Positions 9,901-63,387 are shown, counted from the whole stretch's first letter. The stretch: 63,387 bases of DNA, filler included, from Folioceros fuciformis (GCA_049999805.1; 3 parts of 2 records of this genome joined end to end with filler, not necessarily neighbours in it), one strand, 5' to 3'. Made by a program: numbers and translations. Notes: generated by a model not told the origin, from the sequence alone.

Positions 9901-10400
9901 ATGATGGTCAGAATCATCCAAGTTGTAAATGTAACAGTGGTTAGCTTCAAAAGGGAAACCATACGACTGACTACTCAAATGGAGATCAGGTTCTTCGACA
10001 TAGAGGGCACATAGAGGACATCTTCCAACTAAAGTGTCCCTCCATTTATTAAAGGTATGACCACCCGTCTAGTACCTTTGACTGCAACTCCTCGAGCATT
10101 TCCTACATACACTAATTGTGGTGAGGTTGTGTTCCAGAACGTCGTGAATAACTGCCGGTTGTTGCAAACATGTGCAGAGGCACATGAGTCAATAAACCAC
10201 AGAGATGAAAGCTCACGTGTAGCAGTGAAGCACACAGTCAAAGTTGTTGCAGCACGTCTGTTTGAAGGTAATTTGGAGTCCTTTACAACAACATGAGCTT
10301 GTGATAATTTCACGTCCTTCTTTGGATCACCAGCTTGCTTCTTGCAACAGTCGTGCTCCCAATGTCCAGGAATGCCACACCAATGGCAAGTGCCTGCACA
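6903..10400 (-). pseudogene. Disrupted copia gag-knuckle/pol polyprotein (PR-INT-RT-RH)
   Basis: ORF fragments at 10029-10313, 9571-9978, 9227-9490, 8031-8969, 7284-7532 and 6903-7085 carry canonical copia motifs, separated by stops and frameshifts. Confidence 0.92.
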
Positions 10401-11562
10401 TTTGGCAGTCGAGGGGGAAATAGAGGGAGGTTTCTTTCCTCCTTTATATGTCCTCTTCCTAAACGTTTTGCACTAACGACAAGGAGAACAAATGTAGGAG
10501 GAGGAACGATTGAGGAATATTGAGAAGTTAGAGACTACAAGAATGATACCTCTGTTTCTGGGTCTGTGTCATGATCACTATCCGTCTCTTCAAAGAGAAG
10601 TGAGAGACCTGACATACAGAAAGTATCTATGCGATCATGCAAAGAATACGTAGACGCATCAGCTTATTTGCAGGCTATAAACTAATAAAAAACAGGTGAG
10701 AATCGAAACGCCACCACGAAACGACATGGAAATTGGAAACGGTAAGTAAGTGAGCCCTAAAAGAACCAAACGTGCCCTAACTTTAAATTTTAAGGATATG
10801 ACTGGTTGTACGCTCATGACAGGTGTACACAATCGAAGAACAATGTGCCTAAACCCTGTACATGACAACCAACTATCAGACGTGCGTAAGGCACCAGTTG
10901 GTGGCTGGCTGGAGACAACGCCTAGAGTGGTGAGCTATGTCCACCTCCGGCTGCAGCACGCCTCCCATCAATCTGATCAGGCTGCCTTAGTAGCATCGCA
11001 CTCACGAATTGGAGGCGACAACGCTGGTAAGTAAAGGGCAGCTTGAGGATCCATCACCAAGAGTCCTGGATCTGAAACTCTAAGAAGCTGCGCAATTTTC
11101 TGAATAGTTACAGTTTGCACTCGAGAAGTCTCAGATTGCAGACGCAGATCCTCCGTGAGAGTGGCAATCATTCGAATTGCTGAGTCAATCTGAAGGGTGA
11201 GGTCTGATCTTGTTCTAAATAGCAGAATCTGAGTGTCTCGAAGGCAATCATCAATTGTTGAACGAGTGGCTTCCAAGATCAGATCCTCATCTTCACCGAG
11301 TGACATCACTCTTAATGGTCGCCTTGCTAATCCTTGTCTTGAGCTTGCACGTTGAATTGCACAACAGGTGTAGGAACGCTGATCCTTTTGTTCACCACGA
11401 GATGTCTCCAATTTTTGAGATGCTATGGGGAAGAAAGCCGTGTGTGAGTTTTGTCTAGAGATTCTCCTTGAAGAATCCTCAAGATATCTATTCGTAGTAG
11501 AGGACAATTCAAGTTTAAATTCCCCTACGCATGAAGGATACCTATTTTTAGACCTACGCGTC

Positions 11563-11628
11563 ATTTCTGCTACTCAAGTGAGACCAACATAGTCTATTTC
11601 TGCTACTCAAGTGAGACCAACATAGTCT
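11563..11628. repeat. Perfect 33-bp tandem duplication in the copia 5' leader
   Basis: ATTTCTGCTACTCAAGTGAGACCAACATAGTCT occurs twice in tandem. Confidence 0.9.
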
Positions 11629-12002: not shown

Positions 12003-12426
12003 CATTCTGCTAGACCAGATAGGAAACAAGTCAACCTACAGCAACCCACAGCACCTTCCACAAAACATATATAGACTAGGGTCGCTGCAGCTACAAGATC
12101 AGCCTAGCAACAACAGATACTGGAAAAACTGTAGGAGCTCACCGTCTCTACAGCACCAACGCCAATGCCTCTAACCTGCCTACACATATAAACCCTGCAC
12201 GCCACATGCATCCCTAAACCTTGCGATCCCTAGATCGCAAATTGCTTTCCAGCGACTCCACCAACCCAAGGCTATTGTGCAAAGCATGCACCACGTCCGC
12301 TAGGGTGTCCGTGACATTTCCTGTCCNNNNNNNNNNNNNNNNNNNNNNNNNNNNNNNNNNNNNNNNNNNNNNNNNNNNNNNNNNNNNNNNNNNNNNNNNN
12401 NNNNNNNNNNNNNNNNNNNNNNNNNN

Positions 12427-28332: not shown

Positions 28333-30569
28333 AGGGAAGGATCAGCGTTTGTGCAATGATCTCACACAACTGTGTGTTATGTTCACTGAAGATGCAGGCG
28401 AGCAAGCATATACAATCTGTTGTAACCATGGGTGCAGCACATTGTGTGCTCCTTGGAATCCAGGAAGCGCACCGTGAGTCCGAACGGAGTAATTTTGCAG
28501 TATCGCCAGTCCGGAAAGGCCAGGTGTTCCTTTCGTTTTTGGCAAATGCACTGCAATAGATACTCCATAGAGAGCCATTTGGACACCATTCATCTGTTAA
28601 TTTGAGAGGTGCGGCAGGCATCTCTGATTTAACATTCCCTATTCATTCGTTCTCTTGGAAGTCCTTGTGGCAGTTGTCAGTTATAAGGCATTTGACATCC
28701 CTGATGTTGAAACCGGTGACGACTTTATGTCGGACACATACATAAAGCGAAGATGAGTCTCTGAGCAATTACTGACAACGTTACCAAAGTCCACAGAGCA
28801 GGAGGTCAAGCCTTTCCAAAAGAGAAATTCAGCACCAGCTGCTAAAGCCATGGCCACCACAATGTTTTCATTATGTGATACATTGCTTCATATACATGTC
28901 ACCGCTTCCTGGAAGGACACGTATCATCATTCTGGTAAATAAGGAGCTTTGCAACAATCCTTTCCTGCGTGAAACAAAGCTCGGACGTCACACTCACTAG
29001 TCATGATTGGCATTTCTCATCGACAAAACCTGAGAAAATATTTAAGCCCTAGGTGGAATCCGTAAGTCCTTCTGCTATCCAAAACTCTGCTGCAATGGCA
29101 ACAAATGACACGATACTGGACCAAGCCTTATCAGTTCTTAGGACAGAAGCCACACCCTCTGGCGTTCTCACCTTAAAAACATGGATTGGGCACAGGACGA
29201 AATCACGTCACGGCACAAAGAGTCGGAAGAATAGAGGACCTGAGCAGCCGAAACACTGCTAATCATCAAAGGCTCTGAGTACTTCAGAACACAACGGGCG
29301 GGGGCCTACCAGTGGCTAGCCCACCCGCAGATCACCTAAAGCAGACAAAGTCAAAGATGATAACACTGACCGGTAGAAGAGCGGGTTCCTCAGTGCAAAC
29401 CTGGAACCACGAAGTTCAAAGACACATTTTTCTCACTACCAGAGCTCTGATCACCAGCGCACTTTTAAAGGACTAGTGCGGTATTTGTGCCAAACGGCAC
29501 CAAGTTGGTCCCCCCCCCCCCCGCCCCACCATACTCTGCCTTGGCAAGTGTCGGACGATACCTCATTGGGCACATCGTTTTACACCTTGGACAATCTGAA
29601 AACAAAACTAGGCAGAAGCAATTATGCAATTTTTTGGTCAGTACTTCACTTACAAAGGATTCAGGCACCCATACATGACCTTCCCCTTCATAGGAGAGCA
29701 AATAAAATTCTGGCAATTTGACCAGGCAAGCGCTGACGTTTGACACTGTGCATGAGCGTTGAAAATCATTAGTATCACACACCGGTGTCTTCATTTTGAA
29801 AAAGGCCTAGCAACCACGTGAATGGTATTAGAGTTTCACCATGGGCAATGTGTCATCTTGCTCGTTCTTGGACCGATTGGGAGCAAAAATTCGACACTGC
29901 AGCCATAACCACCATTAACATCTGTTTCCAACTTTATACAGGATGGAACACAAAGGGTTCTCCAACATTCAGGTTCTAAGAAAACATGCACCTAAACACA
30001 GGAACTATGCTTCATCTATCGAAAAAAAACGCTCAGCTAGGTGCCTTTAAAAGCCGTCGTAGCATTCTCCATAGACTGCAAGACGTCTTGGAGACGCCTT
30101 CGAGTTTCTTCTCAAACACATCTGTATCTTCCACTGCCCACTCTAATGTGGATAATGGTTTAATTCTTTCTTGAAACGGGGCAAAACCTCATAATAATGT
30201 ATACGCTTGGTGCAAATTCAGCGCAACGCTTGTTGACGTCAATTCCCTATCTTTAACAATGTCATTATCAATTTTAGCATAAAACCACTTTGAATGTACC
30301 AATGAGAAAATGTAGAAAAAAAATAGTGAAAACTAAGGGTAGGGAGCCGACATGTCAGGGCCCTGCCCCTCATACTTTTCTTCTTTATACCAGCCTACAT
30401 TAATTTATATATTAAGATATTTACAATCTATATGTTTAAGTTATATAGTTGAGTGGTTAAGTTAGAAGCCTTGCATAGGGTAGCGTAAATAGGATCGATA
30501 GCGTAGGAAAGAATTGAGAATCAAANNNNNNNNNNNNNNNNNNNNNNNNNNNNNNNNNNNNNNNNNNNN

Positions 30570-30581
30570 TTAATTAATTAA
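30570..30581. other. Artificial scaffold linker TTAATTAATTAA inside an N-gap (also at 60073-60084)
   Basis: An identical 12-mer with stops in all six frames sits centred in two 100-nt gaps. Confidence 0.9.
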
Positions 30582-30625
30582 NNNNNNNNNNNNNNNNNNN
30601 NNNNNNNNNNNNNNNNNNNNNNNNN

Positions 30626-33068: not shown

Positions 33069-33531
33069 GGTTGTCGGCACCGCCATGGCGGCTCTCGCCA
33101 CACGGACGGCAGCTCAACACATTACTGAATAATCATGCTCTTTTCATTTGTAACACAATTACATACTAAATTTAACAGTAGGTACCGAAACTTCTGTCGT
33201 GTCCCGTTACAGCAGCCGCCGCCGCTCCAGCCGCCGCGGCCGCCGCCGCGAGTTGCACTGCATGTACGACGCCCTATGCAATCATTTTCGTGATAACATT
33301 GGCTGCTCCCACTCATTATGACACCCTGCCGGCCCCACCCACATGAATTGCGCTTGCAGATTCCACGATCAGTGTCGGAGCCGATACTCCACAACGTACC
33401 GTATCACTGATAACCTATGTCTTATGAGCCGTGCGTATGTGTATCCCAAAGTACGAATACGTACAAATTCGAAACTACGCATCTCAATCTCATCGTTACG
33501 CCGATGCACACACGTTTCAGTCCCCACAAGT

Positions 33532-36226
<2,695 letters not shown>

Positions 36227-38021: not shown

Positions 38022-40770
38022 CTAAGTGGTCAAAATCTCCGGGAGGCTGATTGAACCCTTCGAGCCCTTGACAGCTGCTGAGGTGTCAGGGAAGAACTCC
38101 AGGCCATTCGGCAGGTCAGTCACTGCACCGTCTTTCGTAACTTCGACTGGAAACGATAACAGATGACCAGGCAAGTCAACGATCTCTTCTCCTGCATACA
38201 ATTCAAGCAAGCGATCCGCCTGCCTATTGACTTCCCTGATGCAGTCCAGGCTTGAAGGGTCTGCAAAGACCTCGTCCAACCGCCCCAGATGCTCATACCA
38301 CAGCGACTGTCTGAAACCATGAACGGCACCTCGGGGCAGCTGGTCGGTTATCAGATGATGAGGTTGATATGCCCCAATTGCAATCTCAGAATCCCGTGCA
38401 CCATCCATGGAGCGTTGATTAATATTTGCCGATCCTACAATGATATATTCATCATCCACTGCAGAGGAGGTTTCACATCCAAACAAACCATGTATTAGGT
38501 GTCACAGCCTACTACTAAAGCTACCAAAGATTGCAATAGGCATGTCATCAGTGTAATTAAGACATCACAAACTGGAGCTCACCGATCATCATCTTCGAAT
38601 GAACGTAGATCATAAAACGCCGATTATCTTGCGCCTTTTGATAGTCACTTCCAGGCTCAGGGGATTTTGAAGGCAGATACTCCACACCTTCCTTCGTTTC
38701 ACGGTTGCCAAGGCAGAAAAACGTCAAGTAGTCACGAGGATTTTCATCCTCGATCTGCTCGGCGCGCAAAGCTTCTGCTATGTACTTGTACATCATCTGC
38801 TGCGTTTTCCTCATCCAGTCCAGGATAGCTTGCACAGAAGCACTTTCAGGCACACCTTCAGGCCACATGGGAACCACAACATAAACAGCAAAACGTTCTC
38901 TTGCTTCAATCTTGCTGACAATCTTGAGTGCAAGCTCAATTGGAATGAGATGTGAAGCTCCTGCGTGCTGATCCTCAGGCCAGGCAAAGCAGCTCCCCAG
39001 AAAGTACTGGTTTTCGATGTAGATGTAGTTTTTCGCTCGCCGGATGGCATGGACGTAAGCGTCATGAATGCTCTTGTCTATTGTGTTGTTCTTCCCACTC
39101 ATAAGACCAGCCTTAGCAGCATCATGAGGATTCTCAGGAAATCCAGCTGCAGCGCCTGCATCAATCGATCGGAAAAGCTGCACATTCCAGCTCTCCGGGT
39201 CGTCACCGCTGGTAACTTCCGTGGGAGGTCCCATGTTGGGAATAGTTCTGATATCCTTCAGGGTATCATCCCCCTTACCCTGCTTTCTCCAGCGCTGTTC
39301 GAAGTTGTACAGAACATCCCACGCCACAGGACCCTCCATCCTGGAATGAATATCATGCCAAGGCTCTCTGGGACCACCACACTCAATGGTTGCCCCAACG
39401 AAGTTTGGCTGGTGGAAATCCGAATGGTTCACAGAGTCTAGCGTCCTGAAGAGGGAATGACGTTGATCGTCATAACGGCCATCACAAAGATCAATTCCGC
39501 CAACAAAACTGACGATACGCAAGTCCTCGGATCCACCAGGCGAAGGAGCGTCAACAATGACGGTCTTCTGGTGATGCGTGAACATGAACTTGATCTCACT
39601 GCCCTGGACAAAACTGAGGGAATCATCGGGATCCCGCGGACAAAGCACACAATTGACTTGGGTGTCACGGAAATACTCACTCGTATCTTCATCGTGAGTA
39701 GCCATGAGCCCATCCTTCTTCAGCGAACCGACCGAAGTTCTGTCATCCCAGACCAGAAGGTTGACTCTAACCCCTTCGTCGGCCTTCTTCTTCAACAGAT
39801 CTCCCAAAGTTAACCCTTCGTCTCCCGGAACAGGCCTCTCCGGGTCCCGGATCAAGGTTATCTTAGTGTAGACAGACCATCCAGTGATGTAAATGATGTT
39901 CTTGGCATTGTGGATGGCTTCAAACACATCCTCCCAACACCTGCCAGGCCTGAAGGCCAGGCCACCGTCCAGCTGCACGTCGGGAGAGAAGTCATTGGCG
40001 GCATGCGTGTCCTGATAGAGTGTGACCCTGCAACCAGTCCTCTGAGGGAAGTACGTGTAGGGAACGCCGGGATAAGTAGGGACCTTAATTCCCGCTCCCC
40101 AGTGATCATCGTGTCTGGCCTCAAAAAACTGCAGTCGAAATCTGAGCTTGGCATCGCCAATCTTGTCACCGTTCCCCTCATCCTTAAACAGATCGTACCA
40201 CCCCTCCACCACCTCTCCTCCCAGCAGATCAGAGGCTACCACTCTAGCCGTGCCGAGCACATCCGCCCCGATAGTATTGCTGTCCTTGATGCTCAAACAA
40301 ACGTAGTCCACGCTGTGAGCACAGTAAATATGGAAGTCCTCATTCCAGACAGGATTAACAGGCACCTTCTCAATCACACGGGTGCGGCCAACTGTGGCAT
40401 TCTTCCCCAAGTTGATGGTGCAGTACAGCCTGCTCGCTCCCTTTCCAAACCCGACTGCCTCCTCGATGTTCTCTACAAGCTACAATGCAGCAGACAAAAA
40501 TGTCAGGTACGCAACCGAAAAGCCAGAAAGCTCTAGTCCATACCGTCTTACACACAGAAACTAGGCGCCCCCGGCGTTTCCGGTAATACAGATCTGCAGC
40601 GCCAAGGACTGGATGCATGATAGCAAGGCAGAGACAGATGAGCTGAGATGCCGAAGACATACCTTTCTGATGAACTTGGGAGCGCCGCCCGTGGTTCGCT
40701 CCGGATCGATGAGGTCTTGAGCCTCGTACACGGAGACGAACAAAGTCCCGTGAAGCAGGTAGAAAGCCAT
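38022..40770 (-). CDS. PLDa: Phospholipase D alpha-type (C2-PLD)
   Basis: N-terminal C2 ([13 protein letters not shown]), two HKD motifs (HHQKTVIVD and HSKMMI|VDD), [30 protein letters not shown] and C-terminal LPEILTT. Confidence 0.96.
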
Positions 40771-47000: not shown

Positions 47001-49100
47001 GACTGCTGGGTCTGTCCCATGAGTGTTGTAGGACTGGAGCACACTAGAGAAAAAAAAATCGGAGGCATCGGTTGTATTGCAGAGTTGGGACTTATAAACC
47101 CATCGGACCTAGGGTCCAAGGTAGATCCATGTGTTGGGCCGCAATGATCCCCATATACCTCCGAAGGTCCTCCATGGCCACAGAGGTGGATGTTGTCTCT
47201 TCGCAAAGGTGTAAAGTGGTTGCAGGTCTGTCTCCCACTTTAGCTAGACCATCCGCTCTTCTACATGAGTGGCCTCCTTCGTGATTCCTTGGTGCTCTCT
47301 CAACCAACTACACTCGAACTTTGCCTCTTCAAGTTCCCTGGCCAATAGGAAGGTAGGGGGAGAAAGCTGATTGTGCCTCTTGAAGCTGCATGCCCTCGCC
47401 TTCTCCCCCTACTCTGTGCTTCGACCCTTAACTCCTCGAGCTCTTGCATGCAGTGGTCACACTCCTCCCAGAGTTTTTTCAACTCATCTTGGAGTCCCAA
47501 GGTGAGTTCAGCACCTCATTCCTTAAGGGTAGTTAGCCAATCTACCAATTCGGACATCCTTCTCCAGAGGGCTATGTTCTCCCCCTCTTGAGTGGCTACC
47601 TACCTAAAAGACCAAGCTAGTCCCTCAACCACGAAGGTCACAATTCCTTGCGCTACTTGCGTTGCTTCTTCGAAGGTGACTTCATAGTAGAAGAAATAAT
47701 TAGAAGACAACCGGGCCCTCCCAAAGGATGTTCAAATAGCCCACCTCATTGCCTCCTAATTAGTGATCCCTCCCTTCATCAAGGCTTCAAAGACAACAAA
47801 CTGGGGTAGCCCCTTCCTTCGGTCCTGTTCCTGCTCAGTAGGCTTGTGGCTAGGCGAGGTATTACTCTAGCCGACGGTGGGCTAAGGGACCAGCTCTAGG
47901 AGAGTGGGAGGGGCATAGGAGTCATCGGTAGTGCCTTAGGTAGCGCTGCTGGTACAATGACCTTTTTCTTTAGGGTAGGAGCCAAGGCCGGAGTAGCATC
48001 AAAGGAAGGTGTCGGGATAGGAGTGAATCGAGCTATGGTTGCGCTTTCTAAGTTTGTCAGGACCTTATAGTGCCCTCAGATGTGGAATAGAAAGGGAGAC
48101 ATGCTTGAGGTGTGTGGCTTCTTCTGTCTTAGCGTATTGACATTGAATTGAATTCGATGTGCCACCACCTCACCCCAATCTACCGAGGATCCTTGAGCTA
48201 AGCCTAGAGGAACATCTGCACTTCATCGGCCACATGATCTGTTTTCGTGTCCAGCAACCAATTTACAATGATTTCAGGAGACACTCCAAATTCTTAGGTC
48301 CTCGATGTGAATCAACCACCCACTGGTGGTTTTGAAGGATCCATCTGTCAGAAGTGCCTTAGCAACCTCCTTCACCAAGGCTTTGTTCTATTGCAAATTT
48401 AGGTAGAGTCCTTTATGCTCTGAAGCTGGCCATCGGTAGACCTCCCTCATCNNNNNNNNNNNNNNNNNNNNNNNNNNNNNNNNNNNNNNNNNNNNNNNNN
48501 NNNNNNNNNNNNNNNNNNNNNNNNNNNNNNNNNNNNNNNNNNNNNNNNNNNGGTCCAGGGGAAGTGGAACAAGCCCAGCTCCCACTACTCGATAAGGTCG
48601 TCGGCGGCCGCTATACAGGGGGCAAAATTTGGGTATGCCCGTGTCTGTATTTGGTCTTCATTGATCCGCCAGGTGTTGACAGCCTCGAAAACCTGCCCTA
48701 GCGGCATTTGTGAGGAGGAGGTGGAGCAAAGGAAGGTAGGAAAGAACAAGTGAGCACGAAACTAGATCGTGCAATGTGGCTGTTGGAGGGGAGTAAGTGT
48801 GTGAGAGCTCAGCGAGGAGTTAGAGGAGCGTCAAGCTTCGGAATGGCGCCAAAGGTGGTGAGGCGAAGGGAGGGTTGGGGGAGCCAAGAGCGTAATCACC
48901 AGTGTATGCCAACATAAGAACTTACACTGCTGCCTCTTCCAACACTGCAACCATCCGAAGGTAGTTACGCACGCTCAACTTCATGATGACGAGTACGCCT
49001 GACTCATATCCAATTGTGAATCATGTCACTTCATCCGCCACGTGGCTCCTGTTCAAACCACCAAGTCCAGCATGCCTTCGGCTCCAAAAATTTGTACTTG
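44030..49100. mobile_element. Nested or decayed retroelement-like debris
   Basis: Stop-riddled frames, short direct repeats (about 54-bp duplication at 45241/45295), a coiled-coil fragment at 47300-47500 and assembly gaps. No intact domain recognised. Confidence 0.3.
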
Positions 49101-49461
49101 CTAAAAGAGAAATATTAATATTTAAAAATAACAAACACACACCAAACCTTACTTCGATGGATTGTCCATCAGAATACCAAAGTACTCCTCCGATATATTA
49201 TTTTTAGGGCTCACAGAGGTGGTGGTAAATTTGTATCTCTAAGGCATCACTGTTGTTGCAACATCTCTACTTTTGAGGCATCACTAACTTTACTACATTT
49301 CTATCTTTGAGAGATCACGTCTATTGCTACATATCTAAACGTAGGCCTAAGCATCTCTAAACTAGCCGATTAAGAGCCTAAGATGCAACTTCTACATTTG
49401 CTACACATTGTTGTATGTTTGCCCTCAACTTCTCTAGCCCTTCCTTAAGGGTCTCCAACAT

Positions 49462-50020
49462 TTCGAGCATGTAGTGCACACCGTGGACAGTGGCTATCAA
49501 TTTCTTCGAGCATGTAGTGCACACCATGGACAGTGGCTATCAATTTCTTTGAGCATGTAGTGCACACGATGGACAGCGGCTATCAATTTCTTCGAGCATG
49601 TAGTGCACACGATGGACAGCGGCTATCAATTTCTTCGAGCATGTAGTGCACACCATAAACAACGGCTATCAATTTCTTCGAGCATGTAGTGCACACCATG
49701 GACAGCGGCTATCAATTTCTTCGAGCATGTAGTGCACACCATGGACAGCGGCTATCAATTACTTCGAGCATGTAGTGCACACCATGGACAGCGGCTATCA
49801 ATTTCTTCGAGCATGTAGTGCACACCATGGACAGTGGCTATCAATTTCTTCGAGCATGTAGTGCACACCATGGACAGCGGCTATCAATTACTTCGAGCAT
49901 GTAGTGCACACCATGGACAGCGGCTATCAATTTCTTCGAGCATGTAGTGCACACCATGGATAGTGGCTATCAATTTCTTCGAGCATGTAGTGCACACCAT
50001 GGACAGTGGCTATCAATTTC
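49462..50020. repeat. 43-bp tandem minisatellite, 13 copies
   Basis: Unit TTCGAGCATGTAGTGCACACCATGGACAGCGGCTATCAATTTC. 559 bp = 13 x 43, with few substitutions and no spacers. Confidence 0.95.
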
Positions 50021-51233
50021 TTAGTGAAGTTGCTTAGATTGTTGCCTCCTTCTAGTGCCTGCTATTAGGTAGTGCCTTTGGAGGTAGCTCATTATTGCCA
50101 TTATGACATGTTCTTTTCCTTCTCTCCCAAAGAAGGGTAGGAAAGCCTATGAATATCAATATGCTCAAGTGATCTAGAGGGAGGTTGGCAAATGGTTGTA
50201 ATGCCTCTTTCCAACGGTCAATGTGATGATAATAGAATAATTAGCACTTTTCAATTAGAATAAGCGTAAATCTAATATGTGGCTCAATTGGATAGTAGTG
50301 GTACATGAGGGATCCGAATCCAGTGTGCACCAAGACTTTGTTATGGCGAATGTGGAAGCATGTGTTGATTGTTGCTAAGGGGACAAGGGTAGCCTCTTCT
50401 CACAAATTCAAGAGGAAGGAGTGGAGGCTAAAGCGTTTCCTCGCTTTGAGGAGAAAGATGCGGTAGAACCACTCATGCATGTGTAATGGATAAAGCATTG
50501 TAACTCTTTTGTCTACTGTAGGGCTTAGGGTTGGATGAGGCCTTGTACCTAATCTAGGACATAGAGACTATCTTTAACGCAACATAGGATAGGATATGGT
50601 AGCAAGAGGGGTGTCTTTAGTGTTTATTGCTGAGTGGAAACCACATTAACAATAAAATTCATGGTTGCTACAATTTCCTAGTTGCAAAGGGGAATTCAAT
50701 TGCAAATAAGTAGAACAGCTTTTGCGAACAAGGAACAAATAAGTAAAACAGCTTTTGCAAGGAAGCAACAAAACCTAAGTCCATACCAAATTGCACCTAC
50801 ACGAATCTAAGCATAACAAACACAGTTCAACATTTGAGGTGCTACTCCATCTCTACCTTTGAGGCATCAATCTTGTACCCACATTTCTCCCTTTAAGGCT
50901 TGCATAGTTTGAGCATCGATAAACTAGCTGATCAAGCCCTTGGGAGACAACTTTCACGTATGCTATATATTGCCACATGGTTGCCCTTGCCCTCAACTTC
51001 TTTAGTTTTCTCTCGAGGGTCTCCAATATATGAATCATGCAGTAAATAAGTGCATCAAACTATGTCTGTCAACTTTTATAGAATTACACAGATGACTACC
51101 TCCCTTTGTTGCTTGTTGTCAAATAGCTCATTTTTGCCAATTTGACACAGAAGAAACGTTTACACATGATCGTAGAGACTTGTCTTCATCATGGGGCATA
51201 CTATAGTGGCCATCTTTGTGATGGAAAAAAGTA

Positions 51234-51254
51234 TAGGGTTTAGGGTTTAGGGTT
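51234..51254 (+). repeat. Interstitial plant telomere-type repeat (TAGGGTT)x3
   Basis: Three tandem Arabidopsis-type units. Two CCCTAAA units also occur at 15274-15287. Confidence 0.7.
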
Positions 51255-53567
51255 ACTGTGGTATGTAGGGAGAACTTTTATTTGGAGTAGTAAGCTGTTT
51301 CATAGCGATGATGGTGATGCTTTCAAAACATTCAATATCATGTAGGTATTATCATGCGCTTTTGCATATGACATGTTAATCACGCATTGTGTAACCTTTA
51401 TATAGCTCATATGACTCAATGCTCATTACTTTTGTTTTTTTCAAATGAAGAATATATAGACTTTAGATCATGTGTAGTACTTCAAAATCAAAGGATGGAC
51501 TCCCATTGTACCTGCACTCTTTTTGAGCTTTGGGTCCCCCTAGTCAAGGAACAAAGGGCGCTGCCTTTGAGATAAGCCGAGACCAGCTGGAAACGCACAT
51601 CCATGTAGAAACCCGCCTGGTGATTCTTTCAACACAAATATCAAAGTGGTTCATCTTGCATCATGAGATGGAGATAATGTTTCTGACCATTGCATCAATC
51701 TATTCTGACCATTGCATCATTAGATTGAGATAGAGTTCCTGACCAGGACTTCCCTCTTGGCTTATGAGGAAGAATGTCACTTGGCCTGGTACGCTTCTCA
51801 ACCCCACGAAGAAAACTATGAAACAGTACGTCCATATCCACCGGCTCTGACCAGGCTGCTTTCTTGTCTTGATTGCCTCTTCATCCGTACGTATCTCGTC
51901 TGTGCCTGCAAACCGGTGCCAGGGCTTTGCATTTTCACGGTCTGATGCATGACGCAATCCAAATGTGACTCGCGAGTGTCTGCAAGCCAGGGCTTTGCAC
52001 GTTCTGCGGCAACTCGACAAGTGGTGGCGTATGGCTCCTGAATCGAGCAACCCCGATGCACGCGAGCCAGCCAGAACCTTGATGGCTCTGCGCTCCATGA
52101 ACTTGATGTACTGGGTTGCTGCATCTCCTCAAGGGTTTACTGTGCTTTGCTTTACATTGCAGGTGATTCGTTGCCAGGCCAGTTCTGGCTGGTCGACTTA
52201 TGGGACGTCCTACTGAAGGACCCTAAATTAGAAGCCTTATGCAACACGATATCCTTTAGACGCGTTAAAGGTTAATATTCACATGGACGACAATTGCCGA
52301 GGTTGAGGTATGGTGTCGCCTTCCCGGTCACCCGTCGTCCCTTCGTCGCTATGGCCTAAATTCGCGGTTCCTCCGGAAAAAGCAATGAGTAGGCAAATAG
52401 GAGCCCTACAGTGCATGGAATCCGGGTGGGGAGAGCCATCTGGGTTCATGATGTGGGCGAGGTTTTCGCTGTCGACGAGTTTTGCTTGTGGTCACCGCGG
52501 TTGCCTCGTCGGCGTACCTCGTTCTGAAGATTCACAAGAAGGCTTCAGCCACTTTGCGGAAAACGGGACTGCAGCCTTGGGTGGTGGAGCTGATTTCTAG
52601 CTGCTCCCACCAGCGCTCGTGGTGCTGACATTTTGCTCTTCGGAGAGGCTGGGAGACAGCGTATTGCTCCCTTGAACGTTGTTCAGTTGTCGGGATTTGA
52701 TCGGGCCGAGCCGATCTTTGCAGTTTCTCCGTAAGTTTGGCCTCCAGGCTATCTGCGGTGCAGTTTCTCCCTGATCCAAGTTTTTCCTCTGCTTTGCGTG
52801 CTCGTTTAATATCCACTGTGTGCTGCCGCGTGTTTCCAACGCGTATTCGGGTGAGAGTTGATCTGGAAATGCATGGACCTGACCTACACTCGAAGCAATT
52901 TTGTGTCTGTTTCTGGTCGGGTCTTTTAGTCTCCAGATCCTCCTCCTACATGTCGAGTAGGATGTGTTGGCAGGAGTGTCACAGTCTCTGTCCGCTTTCC
53001 CTCATGTGACGATGTCGACAACTCACGATATCCAAGCGGCCGTGCAGTCTCCTCTGCGTGGTGCTCCGACCTTGACCTTTTCCTACATCTGGCTTTTAGG
53101 TTACGGATTTGGAATGCTTAGCGATGTTCTCCTTTCCGTCGGGTTTGGGTCCCTGGCGAAACTATGGCAGGTACTTCTACGAGAAGTAGCTAAAGCAAAG
53201 GATGCCATCCAAGCTTTGTGGTCCACGGTATGTGCACCAGTCCGTGAGCCTGAACTTCCTTCTTCTAAGGACAATGAGTATGCTTTTTCTTTGTGATCCG
53301 CACAGTCCACCGTGCAGTGTTTGGGCAGCCTGTGATGACCCCCCTAAGTCTTGCATGCAATTGTGTTCTATTTCCAGGTAGTAGTTGCCAATGGTATTTG
53401 AAAGGTTGACAAGGTAACGGCTTGTTGTTGAGGGTCAGCTATTCGACGTGTCTCAATTGGTCTTTGTTCTGTCTCAGTCCTATCAAGCCAGACGAGAAGT
53501 CCGAGGAAAGCTGCTCGGGAAATCTTGCTTTGGGTATTGGGATTCCTTCGTCATCGGTTGGTCAAAG

Positions 53568-54720
53568 ATGCAACAAGACGAGCCCCCTCTTGCAGCAGAA
53601 GAATCTGTGCGAGAGACAACTCAAGCAAGTGTTTCCGAGCAGAAGTCTGTGGGAATGGAGCATGCTTTAAACCAGGAGGGCCAAATCACGGGTTTCCAGA
53701 GGAAAGGCATGGCGGAATTTTTGAGAGCGTACTTTTTTGCTAAATATATGCAATGTGACAACGTTCCTTGCAAAATAGAGCAGGTATTTTAACATTCTTC
53801 AAAATTTGGGGGCTTGAATGTTGCGTTGGCCGTGAGGGGCCAGTGCATAACTCCTCCCCGTGCACCCTTCAGGCCAGTTACTGCTCTTGCTGGCTTGGTT
53901 GTCTGAGTGTTTTTATTCAGCTACATGTATGCTACGGATAGTGTGCTCTCCAGGTTTGTCGTGATGGGGGTCCTTTCAAGTGCCTCCTTCTGACGCAAGT
54001 ACCATCCTGTTCTTCATATGCAGGGACTGTACCTGGGATCTATTGGAGCAGCATATAACAAGGCCGCACTGATGCATCTGAATGTGACCCATATTTTGGT
54101 GGTTGCCAATTCTGTCGAAACTCCTTTTCCTCGCGAATTCAAGTATCTGCGTATTGATGGTGCGTCTGGACTGCCTTCTTTGGTTGTCTGTAGAAGCAGT
54201 GGCCTCATTCTTGGGGCAACATAATCCGTTATTCAATGTTGCTTGACTTCCTGTGGCCAAGGTCTAATACAAAGTTTGTGAAAGCAGTCTTGGACAGTCC
54301 AACGGTGAATCTGTTGGAGTATTTCAGCACATGTTTTTCGTTTATTGACGAAGGGAGAAAGGATGGCGGTTCTGTACTTGTTCACTGCTTTGCAGGAAAA
54401 TCCAGAAGGTCTGCCCCGTCTCCTTGTACTTTTTTTGTGGTTCGAGGATTCCTCTTGTGGCTTGCAAACGGCATTGAACCCACTTCTACTCCATGGGTCT
54501 CGTGCAGTGTGACAGTCGTTGTAGGGTACTTGATGAAAAGGTATGCCTGGACCCTGTCTCAAGCATTAGCACTTGTCAAGGCCAAGCGACCGCAAGCATC
54601 ACCAAACAATGGTTTTATGTTACAACTTCACAGCTTCGAAGATCAGTTGCGGGGTGTGTGGGTTTTCTGCCCTACGTTGGTTGTCTTTGAGCTAACTGAT
54701 GGTTTTCGCCAGAGCACTAA
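53568..54720 (+). CDS. Dual-specificity protein phosphatase (DsPTP1/MKP2-like), multi-exon
   Basis: Motifs PCKIEQ|GLYLGSIGAA, VTHILVVAN, catalytic VLVHCFAGKSR|S, YLMKR and RPQASPNNGFMLQL. The spliced stop is inferred at 54718-54720. An upstream in-frame start at 53114 is possible. Confidence 0.9.
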
Positions 54721-55141
54721 TCCTGTGAGCACTGGCAGGCGGAGCGCGAGATGACGGCAGCAACGTCTGACGAGCGTGCCATCACCTTGTACAGAGAGCT
54801 TCTTCTTGGGATAGAATAGCGGCCATAGTTGAGGTATCTACTCTATTGCAGTGCGTTGGTTCTCCCCCTCCCGGCAAGTGGGTATTGTGCGTGAGAATTG
54901 TGTATAAGATAAAACCGAAGGTCGAAATTAGGTTGTTTGTCTGTGCCTCATCGTGACCATATACATAATTTCAGGTGAAGCATGTTACAGCCTGGCTGAC
55001 CTGCTTCTGTTGCCATCCCGCGGACGGAACTTGCACGCCTGCTGATCTCTTTTACTCATTCTAAGGGATTCTCACGATGAAAGAATCTGACAATGAACTG
55101 TAATCCCGTCCAGTATAAGGTTATGAAACCGAAAATCGCAT

Positions 55142-58100
55142 CTACGTCTTGTAGATTGGGAGATCTGTGAAATTCCAGTCGTCGTCCACAAAGTCAGTTT
55201 TTGTTGTCGCTGAAAAGAGATTGCATGAACGCGCAGGTGTGGCGGACTGGTATGAGAGGAACTTATGAGGTTTTTCAGCGGAAGTGACCAAATCGTCGCC
55301 AGAAACAGGCTGACACTCCAAGGATTTGCTATCTAATGGTATGCTTGTGCATGCGTCCCTTCCAGTCTGTTGAGTATCCTGTCGTTCGGCCTTCGCCAAC
55401 AAGGTTCGATACTGCTGCGCTTCATCTTTCCTGCCGAGACTGCTACACATTTGTACGAGGTACCGAAGGGACTCCACATTGTCAGGGTGGGAGGCAGAGA
55501 TGTCCTTGTACTTGGCCAAAGCCATTGAGTATGCTCCGGTCCGCCGATAACATGATGCTGCCAAAAGCTGCCATTTAACCTGCAAGGCACTGCATGTCAA
55601 ACAACTTGAAAGGTGCTGTCTGGTGTGCCTTCATAGGTGGCGATGAAGGTTTTACCTCTCTAGGCTCAATTCTGTGAGCTAGGTTGAAGAAAGGCAAGGC
55701 CTTCTCATAAACCTCTGTCTTGGTGTAAAACCCTCCCAGCCAGGCTATGATCTCCATATTCACAGGATATACTCGGTGCGACTCGCTGTAATAGTGCAAT
55801 GCTTTCAGTTCATCTTCAAGGTTGCTGTGGAGATGACCCAAAGTGGCTAGAATACCAGCATCGTGCATGGCCCGCGTGTTCACTATCTCCAGCCACTTTA
55901 TAGCCTGGCCTACGTTTCCCATAAGCTCGTTCAGTTGCCCGATCTGGTTGATCACTCACAATAAAGCAATTAAGTGCGAGACAAGTGAAATTTGCTAAGC
56001 TACAATGAAGTCTCTATATCATGTGGTGGAACCTGAAATAGGACCTCCACGTTGTTAGAAAGAACATTGCTGAGTTTCTTAAATATATTCAAGGCATCGG
56101 GTAGGGAACCCAACTTCCGATGGACAAGGCCAAGGTTGTAGATGGCCTCGACGCAATCTACATCCACCTCTACAGCCTCTGTGTACGAAGCTTTGGCACC
56201 CTCGACATCACCCTGCCATGCTCAAGGAAGCATATTGTACTGAGGCAGATTATGATCATTCTCGACTGCAGTGATGACGACTGATTTAACAAAAGAGAGG
56301 ACACTTCAAAGATTACCCTAGAGAACAAGCAATTTCCTTTATTAACAAGTGCACAGACGTTGTATCGGTTTGTCTTCACAGCAAGCTCTGCATTTTTTTC
56401 TGCACTTGACAAATCCCCTTCGAGATAATACAGGAAAGATAAATTGGTTGCAGCGCGAGCTTTCAAGTCCTTCTCCTTACGCTGAAATTCCCTCAACAAA
56501 CCGATGGCCTGCAGTACAAACACGTCCTGATGAGCCATCTCCCTCGAGGTCCACCAGCTAGTCCTCCTATGTTCAGATCATTACTGCCAACCAAGTGCTG
56601 ACGGGTGTCAGCAGGAATAATTACTTGACTGTAGTTCTTCCTACGCAAATGTTGAATAGCCTTGTCCATTTCCATCTCATGAGCTAAAGCGACATATTGC
56701 TGATCTTTAAGCATGTCAATCACCCAGTCGTAGCCTTCCACAAAAGTAGTTCCTATCACTGGCGCGATAAGCCTAGCTGCAGTCAGTATGTACTTCGTAA
56801 CATGCTGCTGCCTGACCCGAATCTCCTCTTTGAGAGTATCATTCTGGAAAACAACAAAGTGAGAGTGCACCCGGGATGCCCCTGATATGTGCAGTGAGAA
56901 AGATTATCACGGCTAGAGGCATGGGGTTCTAAGAAGAGTAGTTACGGCACCCGACATTCCAGGGATCGTGTCTGAAACATACCTGGGCTCGGTCTGCATC
57001 AGATTCATCATCTGAGTCCAGATCATGGAGCCTCAATATGAGCATCTTGGTGAAGCAATTCCTCATCTTGTCAGCATTGCCCAGGATGTAGTAGCACACG
57101 ATGGAGTTATAGCCTGTCTGATGATCTAATTTCAGCTCCATGATAGCTTCAAATGACTGCACGGCATCCTGATGAAGGGCGAAGCGTCCATCAGACCCTG
57201 GAATTGGAACAAGAAACTCGGAACGTAGATCCCGGGCTCCAAGTCTGCATAACCTGATATTGCCCGAGCTTCATAAACGCATTGCCAATGTTCCGCATGA
57301 TCTTGTATCGCGTCTCCTTGTAGGCATTAGGCGTCTGGTCCAGAGCCATGCGGTACATCTTGATGGCTGCAGGGTACTTCCGCTGCTCATAATACACATT
57401 CCCCATATTCACCCTGAGCCTGCCACCGTGCGCAAACTGTGTCGACCTCTGTACATTCAGCGGACAAGATATGGAGGACACCCTGCCCTCACACAAACGA
57501 ACACAAAAGCAACCTGCTTGTTTTTTACAATCTGCGAGTAGGTGCTCAGCGCCTCCGACTGCAACCCGTTAACCTCATACTGATGCCCCAGGTTAAAGCA
57601 CACGGCAAACGTCAACTCCAAGTTCATCCTGTCACCCTGTACACTCACTCGTGAGATGGCAGCAGGAGAAAGCTGTAGGCAGCACACACAGTATTGGTGT
57701 CTACCAGGCCCGCCTGTTCTCGATACTTGCATAGAGCCTTCTCTCTCTTGCTGGCTTCCTTAGCCTTCTCCAGAGCAGACGCATGGTCCCCCTGCCCACA
57801 GCGAGCCCACATAAGCACGGGTTCCCTCCGATATCCCGGAACCGGCAAGGTGAGGACAGTAAAGTTACAGCAAGACTAGCAGCAGCACTGTCCCGCAGCA
57901 GCTGGTTCACACTGCGCTCCATCTCCCGGCCCTGCTGCTCCACATCCCCCGAATCCTTCTTTCCAATGGCCGCCGCCTTGACCCCTTGATTCAGCGGATC
58001 AAACCTGGCGCCCTGCCGTGCCCCGCTCCCCGTCATCTCTAGCGTGAAACCCAATCCAATCCGATCGTGCCGCGGCACGCCTCGCATGTTAACATACCCT

Positions 58101-58553
58101 CGACGAGTACCCGGCAGCTCGAACCGCCGTCATGGGCCGGGAAGCATCTGTGAGCGCCGCGGATGCAACCGAACGAGCCCGCGGCCTCCCAGAGCTGTGC
58201 GGCCTCCACATCGACGCAGAGTGCGCCGTGGGCGTCCTGCACGTGGTGCTGCGAGAGTCGAGAGGCGTGCAAGCCACGAGCCCCTGCGCACGCCAAAAAG
58301 AAAAAACATGTCACGTCGAAAAATCTCTTCACCGCCATCTTCCATGAGCACATGAGGCATCGATCGGTACACGCCAGTGCACCTGATTGTCAGATGCGGA
58401 TGACGGGACACTCAAAGGCCAACACTCGGTGCCGGGGTTGGGCCCTCTCGCTCCCAGAGCAGGCTGCTCCTCGTAGTCGTTGTAGCCCTCATACAGCTCG
58501 TTGTGGAAGCTCTGCATCGACGAGCGCACATCTCCACCCCGCACCATAGCCAT
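55142..58553 (-). CDS. IFT88: Intraflagellar transport protein 88 (TPR protein of IFT-B), multi-exon
   Basis: N-terminal ELYEGYNDY. Motifs SRPMTAVRAAGYSS, GRLRVNMGNVYYEQRKYPAAIKMYRMALDQ, RAATNLSFLYYLEGD, RYNVCALVNKGN and VKWQLLAASCYRRTGAYSMALAKYKDI...PDNVESLRYLV. Confidence 0.95.
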
Positions 58554-58861
58554 GACAGTTTTGCGTCTCCACTACACTGCACACTGCGGCGCACGCAATT
58601 GCCAATTCACAAACATTCCATGGGCAGGTTCTGACAATTCCCATAGGCCGCGACAAATTCGGTTGGGGTTTGCGGCGGCCCGGCCACACATGCATGGCAG
58701 CGACATGCATGCACTGCGACGGGACGCAGACAGAGGGATTTGTGACGGATGGACGCGACGGATGGGCGGCGTTTCGCTTGAGAGGGAGTGTAGTGGGGAG
58801 CTTGCGCTCGGGGAGCAGTGACTTTGAGGCAGACGGAGAAGCAGAGGCAGGGGCGCAGAGA
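58554..58861. promoter_or_regulatory. Putative bidirectional promoter between IFT88 and the protamine-like gene
   Basis: Only 308 bp separate the divergent ATGs. Contains MYB-core CNGTT sites (CAGTT 58556-58560; CGGTT 58660-58664, which reads CAACCG on the minus strand) and two RY-type CATGCATG motifs (58689-58696, 58704-58711). Confidence 0.6.
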
Positions 58862-59344
58862 ATGGGGAAGGCTCATAGCCATCACCGCAGGCGCAGGCAC
58901 AAGCACAGGAGTAAGCACGGGGGCGGGCACAAGCATGGCAAAAGAAGGAGGCCCCATCCCACCTACCACTACATGATACAGAAGGTGCTGTCGAGCAACA
59001 AGCACCGCGTGTCGGGATGCAGTGCAGACAGCATCGCGCAACTGTGCATGAAGATGTATGGGAAGAAGAGGGGGCCTCCTCCACTGCACATGGCCAAGCA
59101 CGTCCACAAGCAGGTTCGCCAGCTCTTCAGGAAGGGCAAACTAGCACAAAAAGGCCATCGCTACGTCCTGGCTGCCAATGTGAAGATTCACCGTCGTCGC
59201 TCTGGTCGGCACAAGGGCCACCGCAAAGGCAGGGGCCGCCATCGCCGCAGGCGCAGACGCGGACGTAAGCGTGGACGCAAGCACGGCCGGAAGGGCCACA
59301 AGCGCAAGCGTCGTCGCAGACGGAGGCGCCGCAAGCACCATTAG
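58862..59344 (+). CDS. Protamine-like sperm nuclear basic protein: linker-histone H1 winged-helix domain with Arg/His/Lys-rich tails (160 aa, intronless)
   Basis: HPTYHYMIQKVL...GCSADSI...Y...VRQLFRKGKLAQKGHRYVLA follows the H15 globular-domain pattern. The C-terminal 51 aa contain 26 R, 8 K, 8 H, 8 G and 1 S. Only one acidic residue in the whole protein. Confidence 0.85.
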   Translation: MGKAHSHHRRRRHKHRSKHGGGHKHGKRRRPHPTYHYMIQKVLSSNKHRVSGCSADSIAQLCMKMYGKKRGPPPLHMAKHVHKQVRQLFRKGKLAQKGHRYVLAANVKIHRRRSGRHKGHRKGRGRHRRRRRRGRKRGRKHGRKGHKRKRRRRRRRRKHH

Positions 59345-60129
59345 CTTCCTTCCGCTCTAGAGATATCTAGCACCTAGATATCTCTCTCCCATGGCACCCT
59401 GGGTATCTTATATATCTCTATGTACGTATGAAAGTCCTGTGGTGTCAAAAACGGAGCCATGCCCACAGCCGCAGGGCCTCAACCTCATCTCAAAACCCAG
59501 AATACACTATGTATTTCTCAAAGGAAGGAATCGAAAATCCTGAATGTGGGTGCCACTCCGACTACCTCATACTACGCCTACCACACCTTTCCTCCATTTC
59601 AATTCATCTCCGAACAACAAACAAACAAACACACACACACACTTCAAATCAAAATTAAAATGATCCCTTCCTCCTCATTCTCTTCTCTTCCTCTTCTTCT
59701 TCCTCTTCCTCTTCATGCTATCCAAATTCCTCTCCCCTCACCTCCTTCCCTAGTTTACCACTACCTATCCTCTTTCCTTCTTTTCAAGTTTTTTCTTTCT
59801 TATACACTTTGTGTTTCTACTTATATTTGTTGCCTTCCAAGTTGGACTCTTCTCAAAGCTAGCATTCTGGCAAGATACTTGTTGGTTCTTTCTAATTGGT
59901 TTTTTCTCCAAACTTTCTTTCATCCTAGGTACATGAGTCTTTTATTTATTTATTAAATATATTTATAACATATTTTAATTTATTTATTTATATTCTTTTA
60001 TATTTATTATGATAATTATAATTTATTANNNNNNNNNNNNNNNNNNNNNNNNNNNNNNNNNNNNNNNNNNNNTTAATTAATTAANNNNNNNNNNNNNNNN
60101 NNNNNNNNNNNNNNNNNNNNNNNNNNNNT

Positions 60130-60500
60130 GGGAGACAGGCTGGCTGGGAAAAAAAGGGGCGGTGGTTGGCTGACCGGGAAAACATAAATGCATCCAAGTG
60201 CTTGGGCCAGGATGCAGTATGCAGCTGTAGCTTGGGACAGGACAGGACATGGAAACGGTTTTGCTTTGGGGAACGGGCGGTGAGAGGGAGGCTGGCTGGG
60301 AAAAAATGTATGTATCCAAGTGCTGGGGCCAGGATCTCGAGACAGGACAGGACAGAACAAGGGTTTTGCTTTGGGGAACGGGTGGTGGCTGGCTGGTTGG
60401 GCAAAATGTGTGTATAAGTGCTTGGGCGAGGATGCACCATGATGATGGCGCTGTTGTTTGTGATGGCGCTGTTGTTTGTGATGGCGCTGTTGTTGCTGAG
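60130..60500. repeat. Interspersed direct repeats upstream of the unknown ORF
   Basis: CAAGTGCTTGGGCCAGGAT-like motif three times, GTTTTGCTTTGGGGAACGGG twice, and an 18-bp GATGGCGCTGTTGTTTGT unit three times. Confidence 0.7.
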
Positions 60501-61226
60501 AGATCGTTTGTTGTGTTCATCAGGCATGAAGACAGATCTATTTCTCCTAGTTCAAGACTAGTGAAGCATGATGCACGTTGGAACATTCTGGATCTTATCA
60601 GGAAAGAAGAGAATCCCTCCAAGCGGGAAGAGCTCTTGGAGTTGTTGGCGAGGAGCATGGAGGACAAGGAGAAGATGGTGAGGAGCTTTGAGGACAAGTT
60701 GTTGAGGAGCTTTGAGGACAAGTTGTTGGACAAGGAGAAGAGGATTGCAGACAAGGAGCAGATGATCAAGGTGATGGAGGAGAATACGAAATTCCGAATC
60801 CAATGTCTGGAGTACGACCTGTTGAGGGCGTCCAACTCCAATACTCTGAGAGGAGTATTTGAGTTCTTCCAAGACAAACTGGAGGCGATTGTGGGATTGA
60901 AGTTTGGTCGTCCAGACGGGAACAGGAAAGCTTGGTGGGCTGCAGTCTACAAGGCTCACCCTAAATTGAGTAACTGTTTACGGAAGGACACGGGCTGGGC
61001 ATCTGAAGAGCAACAGGCAAGTGGTATGGTTGCAATATACGCAACCCTTTCTGGGCATGTGCATAGCACGAAGTTTGACAGTGCAAACAGACTTGAGAGG
61101 CTCAAGAAGACCTGGAGAATTGTACGGGAGCCTCTGACCTATGAGCAAGCCCGGGCAATTGAGTGCATTGCGCATTCTTTAGATTATGATTTGGAACTTG
61201 TGGAACCGGTCTCGTATAATACTTAG
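60432..61226 (+). CDS. Intronless protein of unknown function: K/E-rich coiled coil plus alpha-helical C-terminal domain
   Basis: Open frame of 264 codons from the ATG at 60432 (frame open from 60249) with protein-like composition. Repeats RSFEDKLL, then LRGVFE...WW...IYATLSGHVH. The true start is uncertain. Confidence 0.6.
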   Translation: MHHDDGAVVCDGAVVCDGAVVAERSFVVFIRHEDRSISPSSRLVKHDARWNILDLIRKEENPSKREELLELLARSMEDKEKMVRSFEDKLLRSFEDKLLDKEKRIADKEQMIKVMEENTKFRIQCLEYDLLRASNSNTLRGVFEFFQDKLEAIVGLKFGRPDGNRKAWWAAVYKAHPKLSNCLRKDTGWASEEQQASGMVAIYATLSGHVHSTKFDSANRLERLKKTWRIVREPLTYEQARAIECIAHSLDYDLELVEPVSYNT

Positions 61227-62900: not shown

Positions 62901-63387
62901 TCACATCAGGAATTCGACGTTCGGTGTAACATACTTCACAGGCTTCCTGAAACGCGGCAGTGTCAGCTGTGCAAGCCCGGCAACGCCACACGTCAGGACT
63001 TGCAGAACGAAGCCCTGTGAATCTTCGAAAACCACAGGAAACCTTGGCCTAAGCGAGCGCCTAAGCCAGCGCCAGGTCATCTTGCAGACCCAGACGACCG
63101 GCAAAAGGAGGATGTAGACAGGTGAGGTTATCCACTTCAGCCCTCCTTCGAATCCTAGTCGCCATAGGACGTACAGGAAACCAGCCAGAATACCACACAG
63201 GTGGCCCAGGAAGAGCCAGGAAGAAGAGTCTCTAAAAGCTACGTGCACGAGCGAAAGCTCTGCCCAAGGGGCGTAGCGGGTCGGCACCATGAAACCAAGT
63301 ACATCGATGAGGTCGGATCTGGCATGCTGGCTCAACACCACCTTCATCCCGAAAAGCACACAAGAGAACCCTACTCCGCAATGGTAC
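62901..63387 (-). CDS. Rhomboid-like protease (RBL14/RHBDD1-like), 3' part only
   Basis: GVGFSCVLFGMKVVL (catalytic Ser), VPTRYAPWAEL and FLGHLCGILAG (catalytic His). Runs off the window edge. Confidence 0.85.
   Translation of the reverse strand, partial: YHCGVGFSCVLFGMKVVLSQHARSDLIDVLGFMVPTRYAPWAELSLVHVAFRDSSSWLFLGHLCGILAGFLYVLWRLGFEGGLKWITSPVYILLLPVVWVCKMTWRWLRRSLRPRFPVVFEDSQGFVLQVLTCGVAGLAQLTLPRFRKPVKYVTPNVEFLM

Follow-up and report, generated by a model that had tools for sequence, protein, structure and literature searches.

Do two genes that lie head to head in the genome of Folioceros fuciformis, one for a flagellar transport protein and one for a highly basic chromatin protein, take their expression from the same short piece of DNA? 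The question is raised by a locus at positions 55142-59344 of a 63,387-bp stretch of this genome (the window), which consists of three parts from two records joined by filler. Here a minus-strand gene for IFT88 and a plus-strand gene for an arginine-rich protein derived from linker histone H1 (P0002) run away from each other on either side of a 308-bp spacer. A first-pass annotation of the window had seen in this arrangement a candidate spermiogenesis cassette in which flagellum assembly is coupled with nuclear condensation. Our analysis bears out the observation and supports the interpretation in part. It gives a roughly even chance to the reading that two probable spermatid genes have come to lie divergently in this lineage only, with a single short control region in common; an ancient cassette is not implied. 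Joint control of IFT88 and the H1-like gene is an attractive hypothesis and not a result; the two genes are recognisable and their arrangement is an ordinary one.

The IFT88 gene and the H1-like gene

The runs of N nearest to the locus were located at 48452-48551 and 60029-60072, and the contig was free of N from 48552 to 60028. The two start codons, together with this uninterrupted contig, bear out the earlier description of the pair as head to head, with IFT88 on the minus strand, the basic-protein gene on the plus strand and 308 bp without a gap between the starts. The spacer contained neither an assembly gap nor an intervening gene. Since the window is a scaffold of several contigs, no inference is drawn about the DNA 3' of the H1-like gene past 60028.

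The coding region on the minus strand (55142-58553) extended from the ATG at 58553-58551 to the stop codon at 55144-55142 and comprised 12 exons for a protein of about 798 aa. In the homology-guided model, exons 1 to 6 were located at 58553-58383, 58283-58098, 58012-57869, 57791-57705, 57636-57514 and 57436-57254, and exons 7 to 12 at 57168-56983, 56843-56625, 56508-56317, 56212-56033, 55943-55656 and 55579-55142. A global homology-guided search over all GT/GC..AG pairs gave an intact gene with eleven GT..AG introns of 68-139 nt, free of internal stop codons and of frameshifts. The minus-strand stop-to-stop frames between 58553 and 55142 carried TPR repeats according to Pfam, and all four full-length homologues used (Ceratodon P0005, Adiantum P0018, Chlamydomonas IFT88 P0020, and P0007) aligned collinearly over the full span in tblastn. 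When the exon-11 region (55650-55955) was compared with the PDB, the top match was Chlamydomonas IFT88 (8bd7_A, E 3.9e-36), followed by a designed TPR protein (7.4e-27), and the middle piece of the protein outside the strong TPR block matched 8bd7_A only (E 2.2e-06). The N-terminus was predicted as MAMVRGG...ELYEGYNDYEEQ, with ELYEGYNDYE in place of the DDLY(S/G/E)GY(N/D) of algal and plant proteins; since in algal and plant IFT88 this motif is found close to the N-terminal end, the ATG at 58553 is supported. In a tree of 17 rows the protein fell within the land-plant clade (100/100), outside two Adiantum ferns and outside the group of mosses and liverworts. This placement agrees with a hornwort and with a lycophyte alike, and the short introns and gene overlap of the locus are in keeping with a small genome. 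The minus-strand gene is an intact IFT88, a TPR protein of intraflagellar transport complex B, which by analogy is taken to be a core part of the flagellum-building machine.

Fifteen sequencing runs were compared with the stretch. Thirteen of them shared some of its words, and only one, X1, the type of which was guessed, shared at least half (share 0.98). Contigs of X1 spanned 55100-59416 with the introns and the spacer included. Such cover means that DNA or unspliced RNA was present, so cover over the H1-like gene is uninformative on its expression; the contigs reveal neither transcription starts nor strand nor level. The same run bore on the position of intron 1 (58284-58382, minus strand, 99 nt, GT..AG), as a 56-nt X1 contig joined 58282 to 58382 (ends CT..AC). 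This 99-nt intron was also ranked first by the local-score exon models, the boundaries of which were otherwise unstable, and the global model chose a donor at 58409. Because of the X1 joint at 58382, exon 1 was set to 58553-58383 over the global-model exon end at 58410. What the junction contig shows is confined to the presence of a spliced form in a single run, the type of which was guessed.

The H1-like gene on the plus strand (58862-59344; ATG at 58862, stop codon at 59342-59344) was intronless and encoded P0002, a protein of 160 aa from the only strongly basic open reading frame (ORF) within the window. It was divided into an N tail of residues 1-31 (58862-58954), a winged-helix core of residues 32-105 (58955-59176) and a C tail of residues 106-160 (59177-59341). 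The Pfam family PF00538 (Linker_histone) matched residues 32-97 over profile positions 1-62 of 74, with 23.1 bits against a gathering cut-off of 22.4 (E 9.1e-05). The closest relative was an H1 of Calypogeia fissa (P0003, 210 aa), 34% identical over 64 aa (E 9e-05) and the sole match among 1622 word-index candidates. Alignment of P0002 and P0003 with two Riccia H1 proteins showed 22 invariant columns, HPTY at the domain start among them. With a 4-row alignment, AlphaFold predicted three helices and a beta hairpin (H8-17, H28-43, H50-63, E67-70, E73-76) at a pLDDT of 78.1. The ten best PDB matches of this model in Foldseek were all linker-histone or chromatosome structures (TM 0.56-0.79, probability 0.98-1.00, E 0.015-0.13), and the top ones were 5nl0_Z (TM 0.72/0.79, rmsd 2.1), 7xvm, 6la2 and 1hst. 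Since every row of this alignment is an H1 protein, the predicted fold cannot count as evidence separate from them; a single-sequence prediction reached a pLDDT of 63.5 and had no usable fold match. In the ESM Atlas three linker-histone clusters were nearest to P0002, with scores of 0.78-0.81 that serve as a lead.

The C tail of P0002 was made up of R 47%, K 16%, H 15% and G 15% and lacked Ala, Pro, Asp and Glu altogether, and the tail of the Calypogeia protein P0003 had a nearly identical make-up (R 44%, K 14%, H 14%). Like MpPRM and the male-germline H1 proteins of liverworts, P0002 combines an H1 winged-helix core with an extremely Arg-rich tail, and by analogy with what is reported for MpPRM the presumed common role would be compaction of sperm chromatin (PMC6290024, PMC10808223). 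P0002 differs from the liverwort proteins in its core, which is only 32-34% identical to theirs, and in its N tail, which is basic (Arg and His 26% each) and has no counterpart in them. With canonical linker histones H1/H5 (PF00538) it has the winged-helix globular domain in common; it is without the canonical Lys/Ala/Pro-rich C tail, and is instead Arg/His-rich, intronless and highly divergent in sequence. The 8bd7_A matches and the collinear tblastn alignments for one gene, and PF00538, fold and tail composition for the other, agree with the identities first assigned to the two genes, IFT88 and an H1-derived Arg-rich protein. By its predicted architecture P0002 is an H1-derived, protamine-like protein, and we infer that it is a sperm protein.

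In the putative 3' untranslated region (3'UTR), 14 nt past the stop codon, a candidate hairpin with a perfect 12-bp stem and a 3-nt loop was located at 59359-59385 (plus strand). It was the main feature when 59345-59420 was folded with RNAfold (-20.6 kcal/mol). The hairpin differs from the histone stem-loop of animals and algae, and it could serve in storing the mRNA or in forming its 3' end. An X1 contig (58382-59416) ended 72 nt past the stop codon; it comes from a single run and was not used as evidence.

The 308-bp spacer as a proposed shared control region

The spacer from ATG to ATG (58554-58861) had a GC content of 0.60 and 25 CpG against 26.5 expected, and contained no TATA-like word. 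With a CpG observed/expected ratio of about 0.94 at this GC content it is not a CpG island, in contrast to mammalian CpG-island promoters. As in known head-to-head bidirectional promoters, the genes are divergent, the spacer is far under 1-2 kb and nothing lies between; here the arrangement is known from sequence alone. Since the two ATGs are divergent and 308 bp apart, both core promoters and both 5' leaders should be located in the spacer, which makes it a bidirectional promoter in the structural sense. On the plus strand the frame was already open at 58556, and two further ATGs in this frame (58694 and 58709) precede the one at 58862, so the start at 58862, and with it the length of 308 bp, is provisional. 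A plus-strand transcript starting upstream of 58690 would either encode 56 additional, non-basic residues at the N-terminus or carry an ORF ahead of the gene.

Several short repeats were found in the spacer. Two CATGCATG words of the RY type, 15 bp apart, were located near its middle at 58689-58711 and formed a 9-nt direct repeat, ACATGCATG. Two of the three CATGCATG words of the window were in the spacer, and 1.95 were expected over the whole 63,387 bp. The pair also supplies four plus-strand ATGs, two in the H1-like frame (those at 58694 and 58709) and two in a frame ending with a TGA at about 58820. As read on the IFT88 strand, a 13-mer, AGTGTAGTGGAGA, preceded the ATG of IFT88 by 13-25 nt (58566-58578, minus strand). 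The other arm of this inverted-repeat pair (I1), AGTGTAGTGGGGA, preceded the ATG of the H1-like gene by 63-75 nt (58787-58799, plus strand). Their consensus, AGTGTAGTGG(A/G)GA, stands in the same orientation before each gene; with two mismatches allowed it had three matches in the window, and the two exact ones were this pair. Two tandem copies of GACGGATGG(A/G)CG, 13 bp apart, were located at 58744-58768 on the plus strand (direct-repeat family D5). If the leaders are without upstream ATG, transcription of IFT88 would start at or below about 58613 and that of the H1-like gene at or above about 58763, leaving about 150 bp of shared upstream DNA. Under that start-site scenario the 150 bp would hold the paired CATGCATG words and the tandem GACGGATGG copies, and the mirrored 13-mers would fall in both leaders.

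In the proposed mechanism both genes would be switched on in spermatids by a common trans-acting sperm programme, and the short spacer would let one set of bound factors, or one patch of open chromatin, serve both. In Marchantia, MpPRM and most of the tested flagellar genes are reported to depend on MpDUO1, the consensus given for DUO1 being RRCSGTT (PMC6290024). This dependence makes co-expression in spermatids plausible, and if one trans-activator serves IFT88 and the H1-like gene here, DUO1 is the factor that one would first expect. Expression of MpPRM (Mp3g14390) is reported in sperm, in late spermiogenesis (PMC10808223), and MpIFT52 is reported as abundant in antheridiophores (bioRxiv 10.1101/2021.07.10.451882). 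According to the latter source, flagella of Marchantia elongate at stage 1, when the nucleus is round, and nuclear reshaping takes place from stage 2. Because flagella precede nuclear condensation, the two genes would be coupled only at transcription; a later step, possibly one involving the 3'UTR hairpin, would delay the basic protein.

Pairing in other plants and competing explanations

A search with the Calypogeia core gave three proteins among 28 candidates, namely the query, R1flu_012833 of Riccia fluitans and R1sor_006049 of Riccia sorocarpa, and the H1 core was 86-87% identical between Calypogeia and Riccia. In R. sorocarpa the H1 gene R1sor_006049 and the IFT88 gene R1sor_006479 were on one contig of 55,960,836 bp, 430 locus tags apart, which means that they are not adjacent, provided that the tags follow gene order. 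In the annotated Riccia H1 proteins the Arg run was lost soon after the core (P0023, R. fluitans) or swapped for acidic or unrelated sequence (P0024, R. sorocarpa); it looks as though the repetitive Arg codons of the tail had led to wrongly called frames or introns in these models.

When metagenomes were scanned with exon 11 of IFT88, 11 loci were obtained, three of which (L001, L002 and L004) were 76-77% identical in this exon and contained whole IFT88 genes. A JGI protein, P0004, 77% identical in exon 11, grouped with the moss Ceratodon at 97/95 in the IFT88 tree. None of the three loci showed an H1-like match by tblastn (E<=10) or with a four-sequence HMM (best E 2), or a basic upstream ORF; L002 and L004 give 5.3 kb upstream of IFT88 exon 1, where an intron-split or highly divergent H1 could escape detection. 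The divergent neighbour of IFT88 in L002 and L004 was an ORF about 2 kb off that resembled Myb_DNA-bind_4, with a match under the Pfam cut-off. No CATGCATG word was close to the IFT88 start in the moss-like loci, the nearest one in L002 being about 2 kb upstream. A metagenome scan with P0002 gave 130 pattern matches and no relatives among them. The other flanking ORFs of the window had no matches on either side in the 11 loci. As no flanking ORF was kept, synteny has decayed generally, and loss of the pairing says little about selection.

The first-pass annotation had named microsynteny of IFT88 with PRM/H1-like genes in other plants as a check, and the lack of a conserved linkage as a ground for refutation. 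Where this could be examined the outcome went against the proposal: the linkage was not kept in R. sorocarpa, where the genes are 430 tags apart, or in the 5.3 kb upstream of IFT88 in the moss-like L002 and L004. In a strong form the proposal would be that of an ancient, selected spermiogenesis cassette held together across seed-free land plants. Its sole support is the arrangement in a single window, against which stand the two genomes checked, one of a liverwort and one moss-like, in neither of which the pairing was seen, and a literature that, by title, describes no such pairing; we regard it as very improbable. The same literature, on IFT88, Marchantia and hornworts, judged by title and with supplementary gene lists outside scope, contained no description of an IFT88/PRM linkage, in keeping with the earlier statement that no description of it was known. 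For Marchantia, the gene numbers next to that of MpPRM led only to papers that name MpPRM itself.

How compact the locus is can also be seen at the 3' end of IFT88. An ORF at 54194-54751 (plus strand) encoded a dual-specificity phosphatase domain (PF00782, E 8.8e-21), and the 3' end of this convergent neighbour was located at 54834-55287, with a last intron at 54834-55236 (GT..AG) and a terminal coding piece at 55237-55287, the frame of which was read by eye. An X1 contig joined 54806-54831 to 55235-55264, which corresponds to the spliced junction of this neighbour. The IFT88 stop codon sits inside the neighbour's intron, and the terminal coding piece of 51 nt is antisense to the last IFT88 coding exon (55142-55579). 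With the locus compact on both sides of IFT88, and with overlapping genes at its 3' end, a divergent spacer of 308 bp is unremarkable in itself.

The main rival reading, a real possibility which we would still sooner doubt than accept, is that the two genes are chance neighbours in a gene-dense genome, with separate core promoters, co-expression only via separate trans factors and an adjacency that is without regulatory meaning and not under selection. The overlap of the phosphatase gene with the 3' end of IFT88, the short IFT88 introns, the absence of the pairing from R. sorocarpa and from L002 and L004, and the lack of a DUO1 consensus site in the spacer all agree with this, as does the large share of male-biased genes reported in bryophytes (PMC12851517). 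Two fully independent promoters would however be hard to separate physically within 308 bp. For mammals, co-expression well beyond that of random pairs is reported for head-to-head pairs within 2 kb (r of 0.59-0.61 against -0.10 to -0.14), and retrocopies placed in this way are reported to be co-expressed with the gene next to them (PMC4772013). The loss of synteny is also weakly informative, since other flanking ORFs are absent from those loci too. We consider it unlikely that the basic protein is instead a linker-histone variant of somatic tissue, of the stress response or of some other special function, and the pair without shared biology. The divergence of P0002 would fit such a variant, for its identity to the liverwort core is only 34%, whereas Calypogeia and Riccia share 86-87% of that core, and the label "protamine-like" rests on composition and on comparison with liverwort H1 proteins and not with the MpPRM sequence. 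Somatic H1 tails, however, are rich in Lys, Ala and Pro. The C tail of P0002 has 47% Arg and neither Ala nor Pro, and the Arg/Lys/His make-up recurs in the Calypogeia tail. Bryophyte sperm are also reported to use protamine-like proteins from male-germline H1 (PMC12849711, PMC13251019).

A further explanation, of low probability in our judgement, is promoter capture. A lineage-specific, intronless copy of a linker-histone gene, possibly a retrocopy, would have landed head to head on a pre-existing spermatid promoter of IFT88 and obtained its sperm expression from reverse activity of that promoter, and its Arg/His tails would have evolved later, independently of liverwort PRM. The 13-mers would then be start-proximal elements and the CATGCATG pair a shared silencer of the B3/VAL type, linked to Polycomb and keeping both genes off in the vegetative plant. 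The lack of an intron in the H1-like gene and the core identity of 34%, compared with 86-87% within liverworts, would fit such a capture, and the mammalian retrocopies may serve as a precedent (PMC4772013). No hallmarks of a retrocopy were found at the H1-like gene.

The reading of the locus as a lineage-specific divergent pair with one control region also has several points against it. By sequence the H1 assignment of P0002 is marginal, 0.7 bits over the Pfam cut-off. PDB sequence searches gave no match at E<=0.001 with P0002, nor with P0003, and none of the 500 Foldseek matches of the P0002 model reached E<=0.001. HMMER with the 81-aa core of P0002 against 1.84 billion representatives gave one match only and no true relative, from which the core is seen to be very divergent; the single match, a 1344-aa WD-repeat protein, was judged spurious. 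In the spacer (58554-58861) there was no site for the DUO1 consensus RRCSGTT, a motif reported from Marchantia (PMC6290024), and the DUO1 preference of this organism may differ. The window contained 20 such sites against 36.97 expected, and the one nearest to the spacer was at 58122-58128, within IFT88 exon 2. The spacer motifs were chosen post hoc, after viewing the sequence, and are leads and not functional evidence: the chance expectation for the 13-mer pair in 308 bp is about 0.03 by a rough hand estimate, and a single local duplication may account for both CATGCATG words. As flagellum growth and condensation are sequential in Marchantia, identical timing of the two genes is not expected. 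Finally, 4126 genes are reported as up in Physcomitrium sperm packages compared with egg cells (PMC12851517), and with so many sperm-up genes a sperm-expressed neighbour is a priori not rare.

Other features of the window and significance of the locus

The region is eukaryotic and intron-rich, and an Rfam scan of 54000-60028 found no family. The joins of the window at 30526-30625 and 60029-60128 consisted of 44 N, TTAATTAATTAA and 44 N, with stops in all six frames, and six plain gaps of 100 N were located at 12327, 12732, 31816, 42491, 45621 and 48452. Minus-strand genes for a phospholipase D (C2 and PLDc; 38560-40479), a thymidylate synthase (33425-33850) and a rhomboid-domain protein (62904-63386) were found elsewhere in the window, none of them obviously linked to sperm. 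Long minus-strand ORFs at 8034-11573, one with a string resembling a CCHC-type zinc knuckle (10032-10472), are probably a retroelement remnant. On the next contig a plus-strand open frame of 331 codons (60231-61223) was made up of repeats (LLWGTGG... units) and was negative in Pfam. Among the other sequencing runs, X2 and X6 had no contig placed on the stretch. Run X11, from another organism (B), had a single piece of 123 nt on 55137-55259, 90-95% alike at a depth of 69, which spans the IFT88 stop region and the intron-exon border of the neighbour. About 5% of the words were found in twelve runs of organisms B and C, and this is probably the same 123-nt piece.

Both parts of the locus are of known kinds: the protein is an H1 derivative of the protamine-like type, and the gene pair is bidirectional in an ordinary way. 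If both genes are specific to spermatids, the 308-bp spacer would rank with the smallest natural promoters known from seed-free plants that drive sperm expression in both directions. It would then be convenient for expressing a pair of transgenes in male gametes, and a compact test bed for the joint switching-on of flagellum building and chromatin compaction. In P0002 a lineage other than mosses, liverworts and ferns provides a candidate for a sperm nuclear basic protein, and the core identity of 34% between P0002 and the conserved liverwort proteins bears on whether the protamine-like proteins of plants arose from H1 once or several times.

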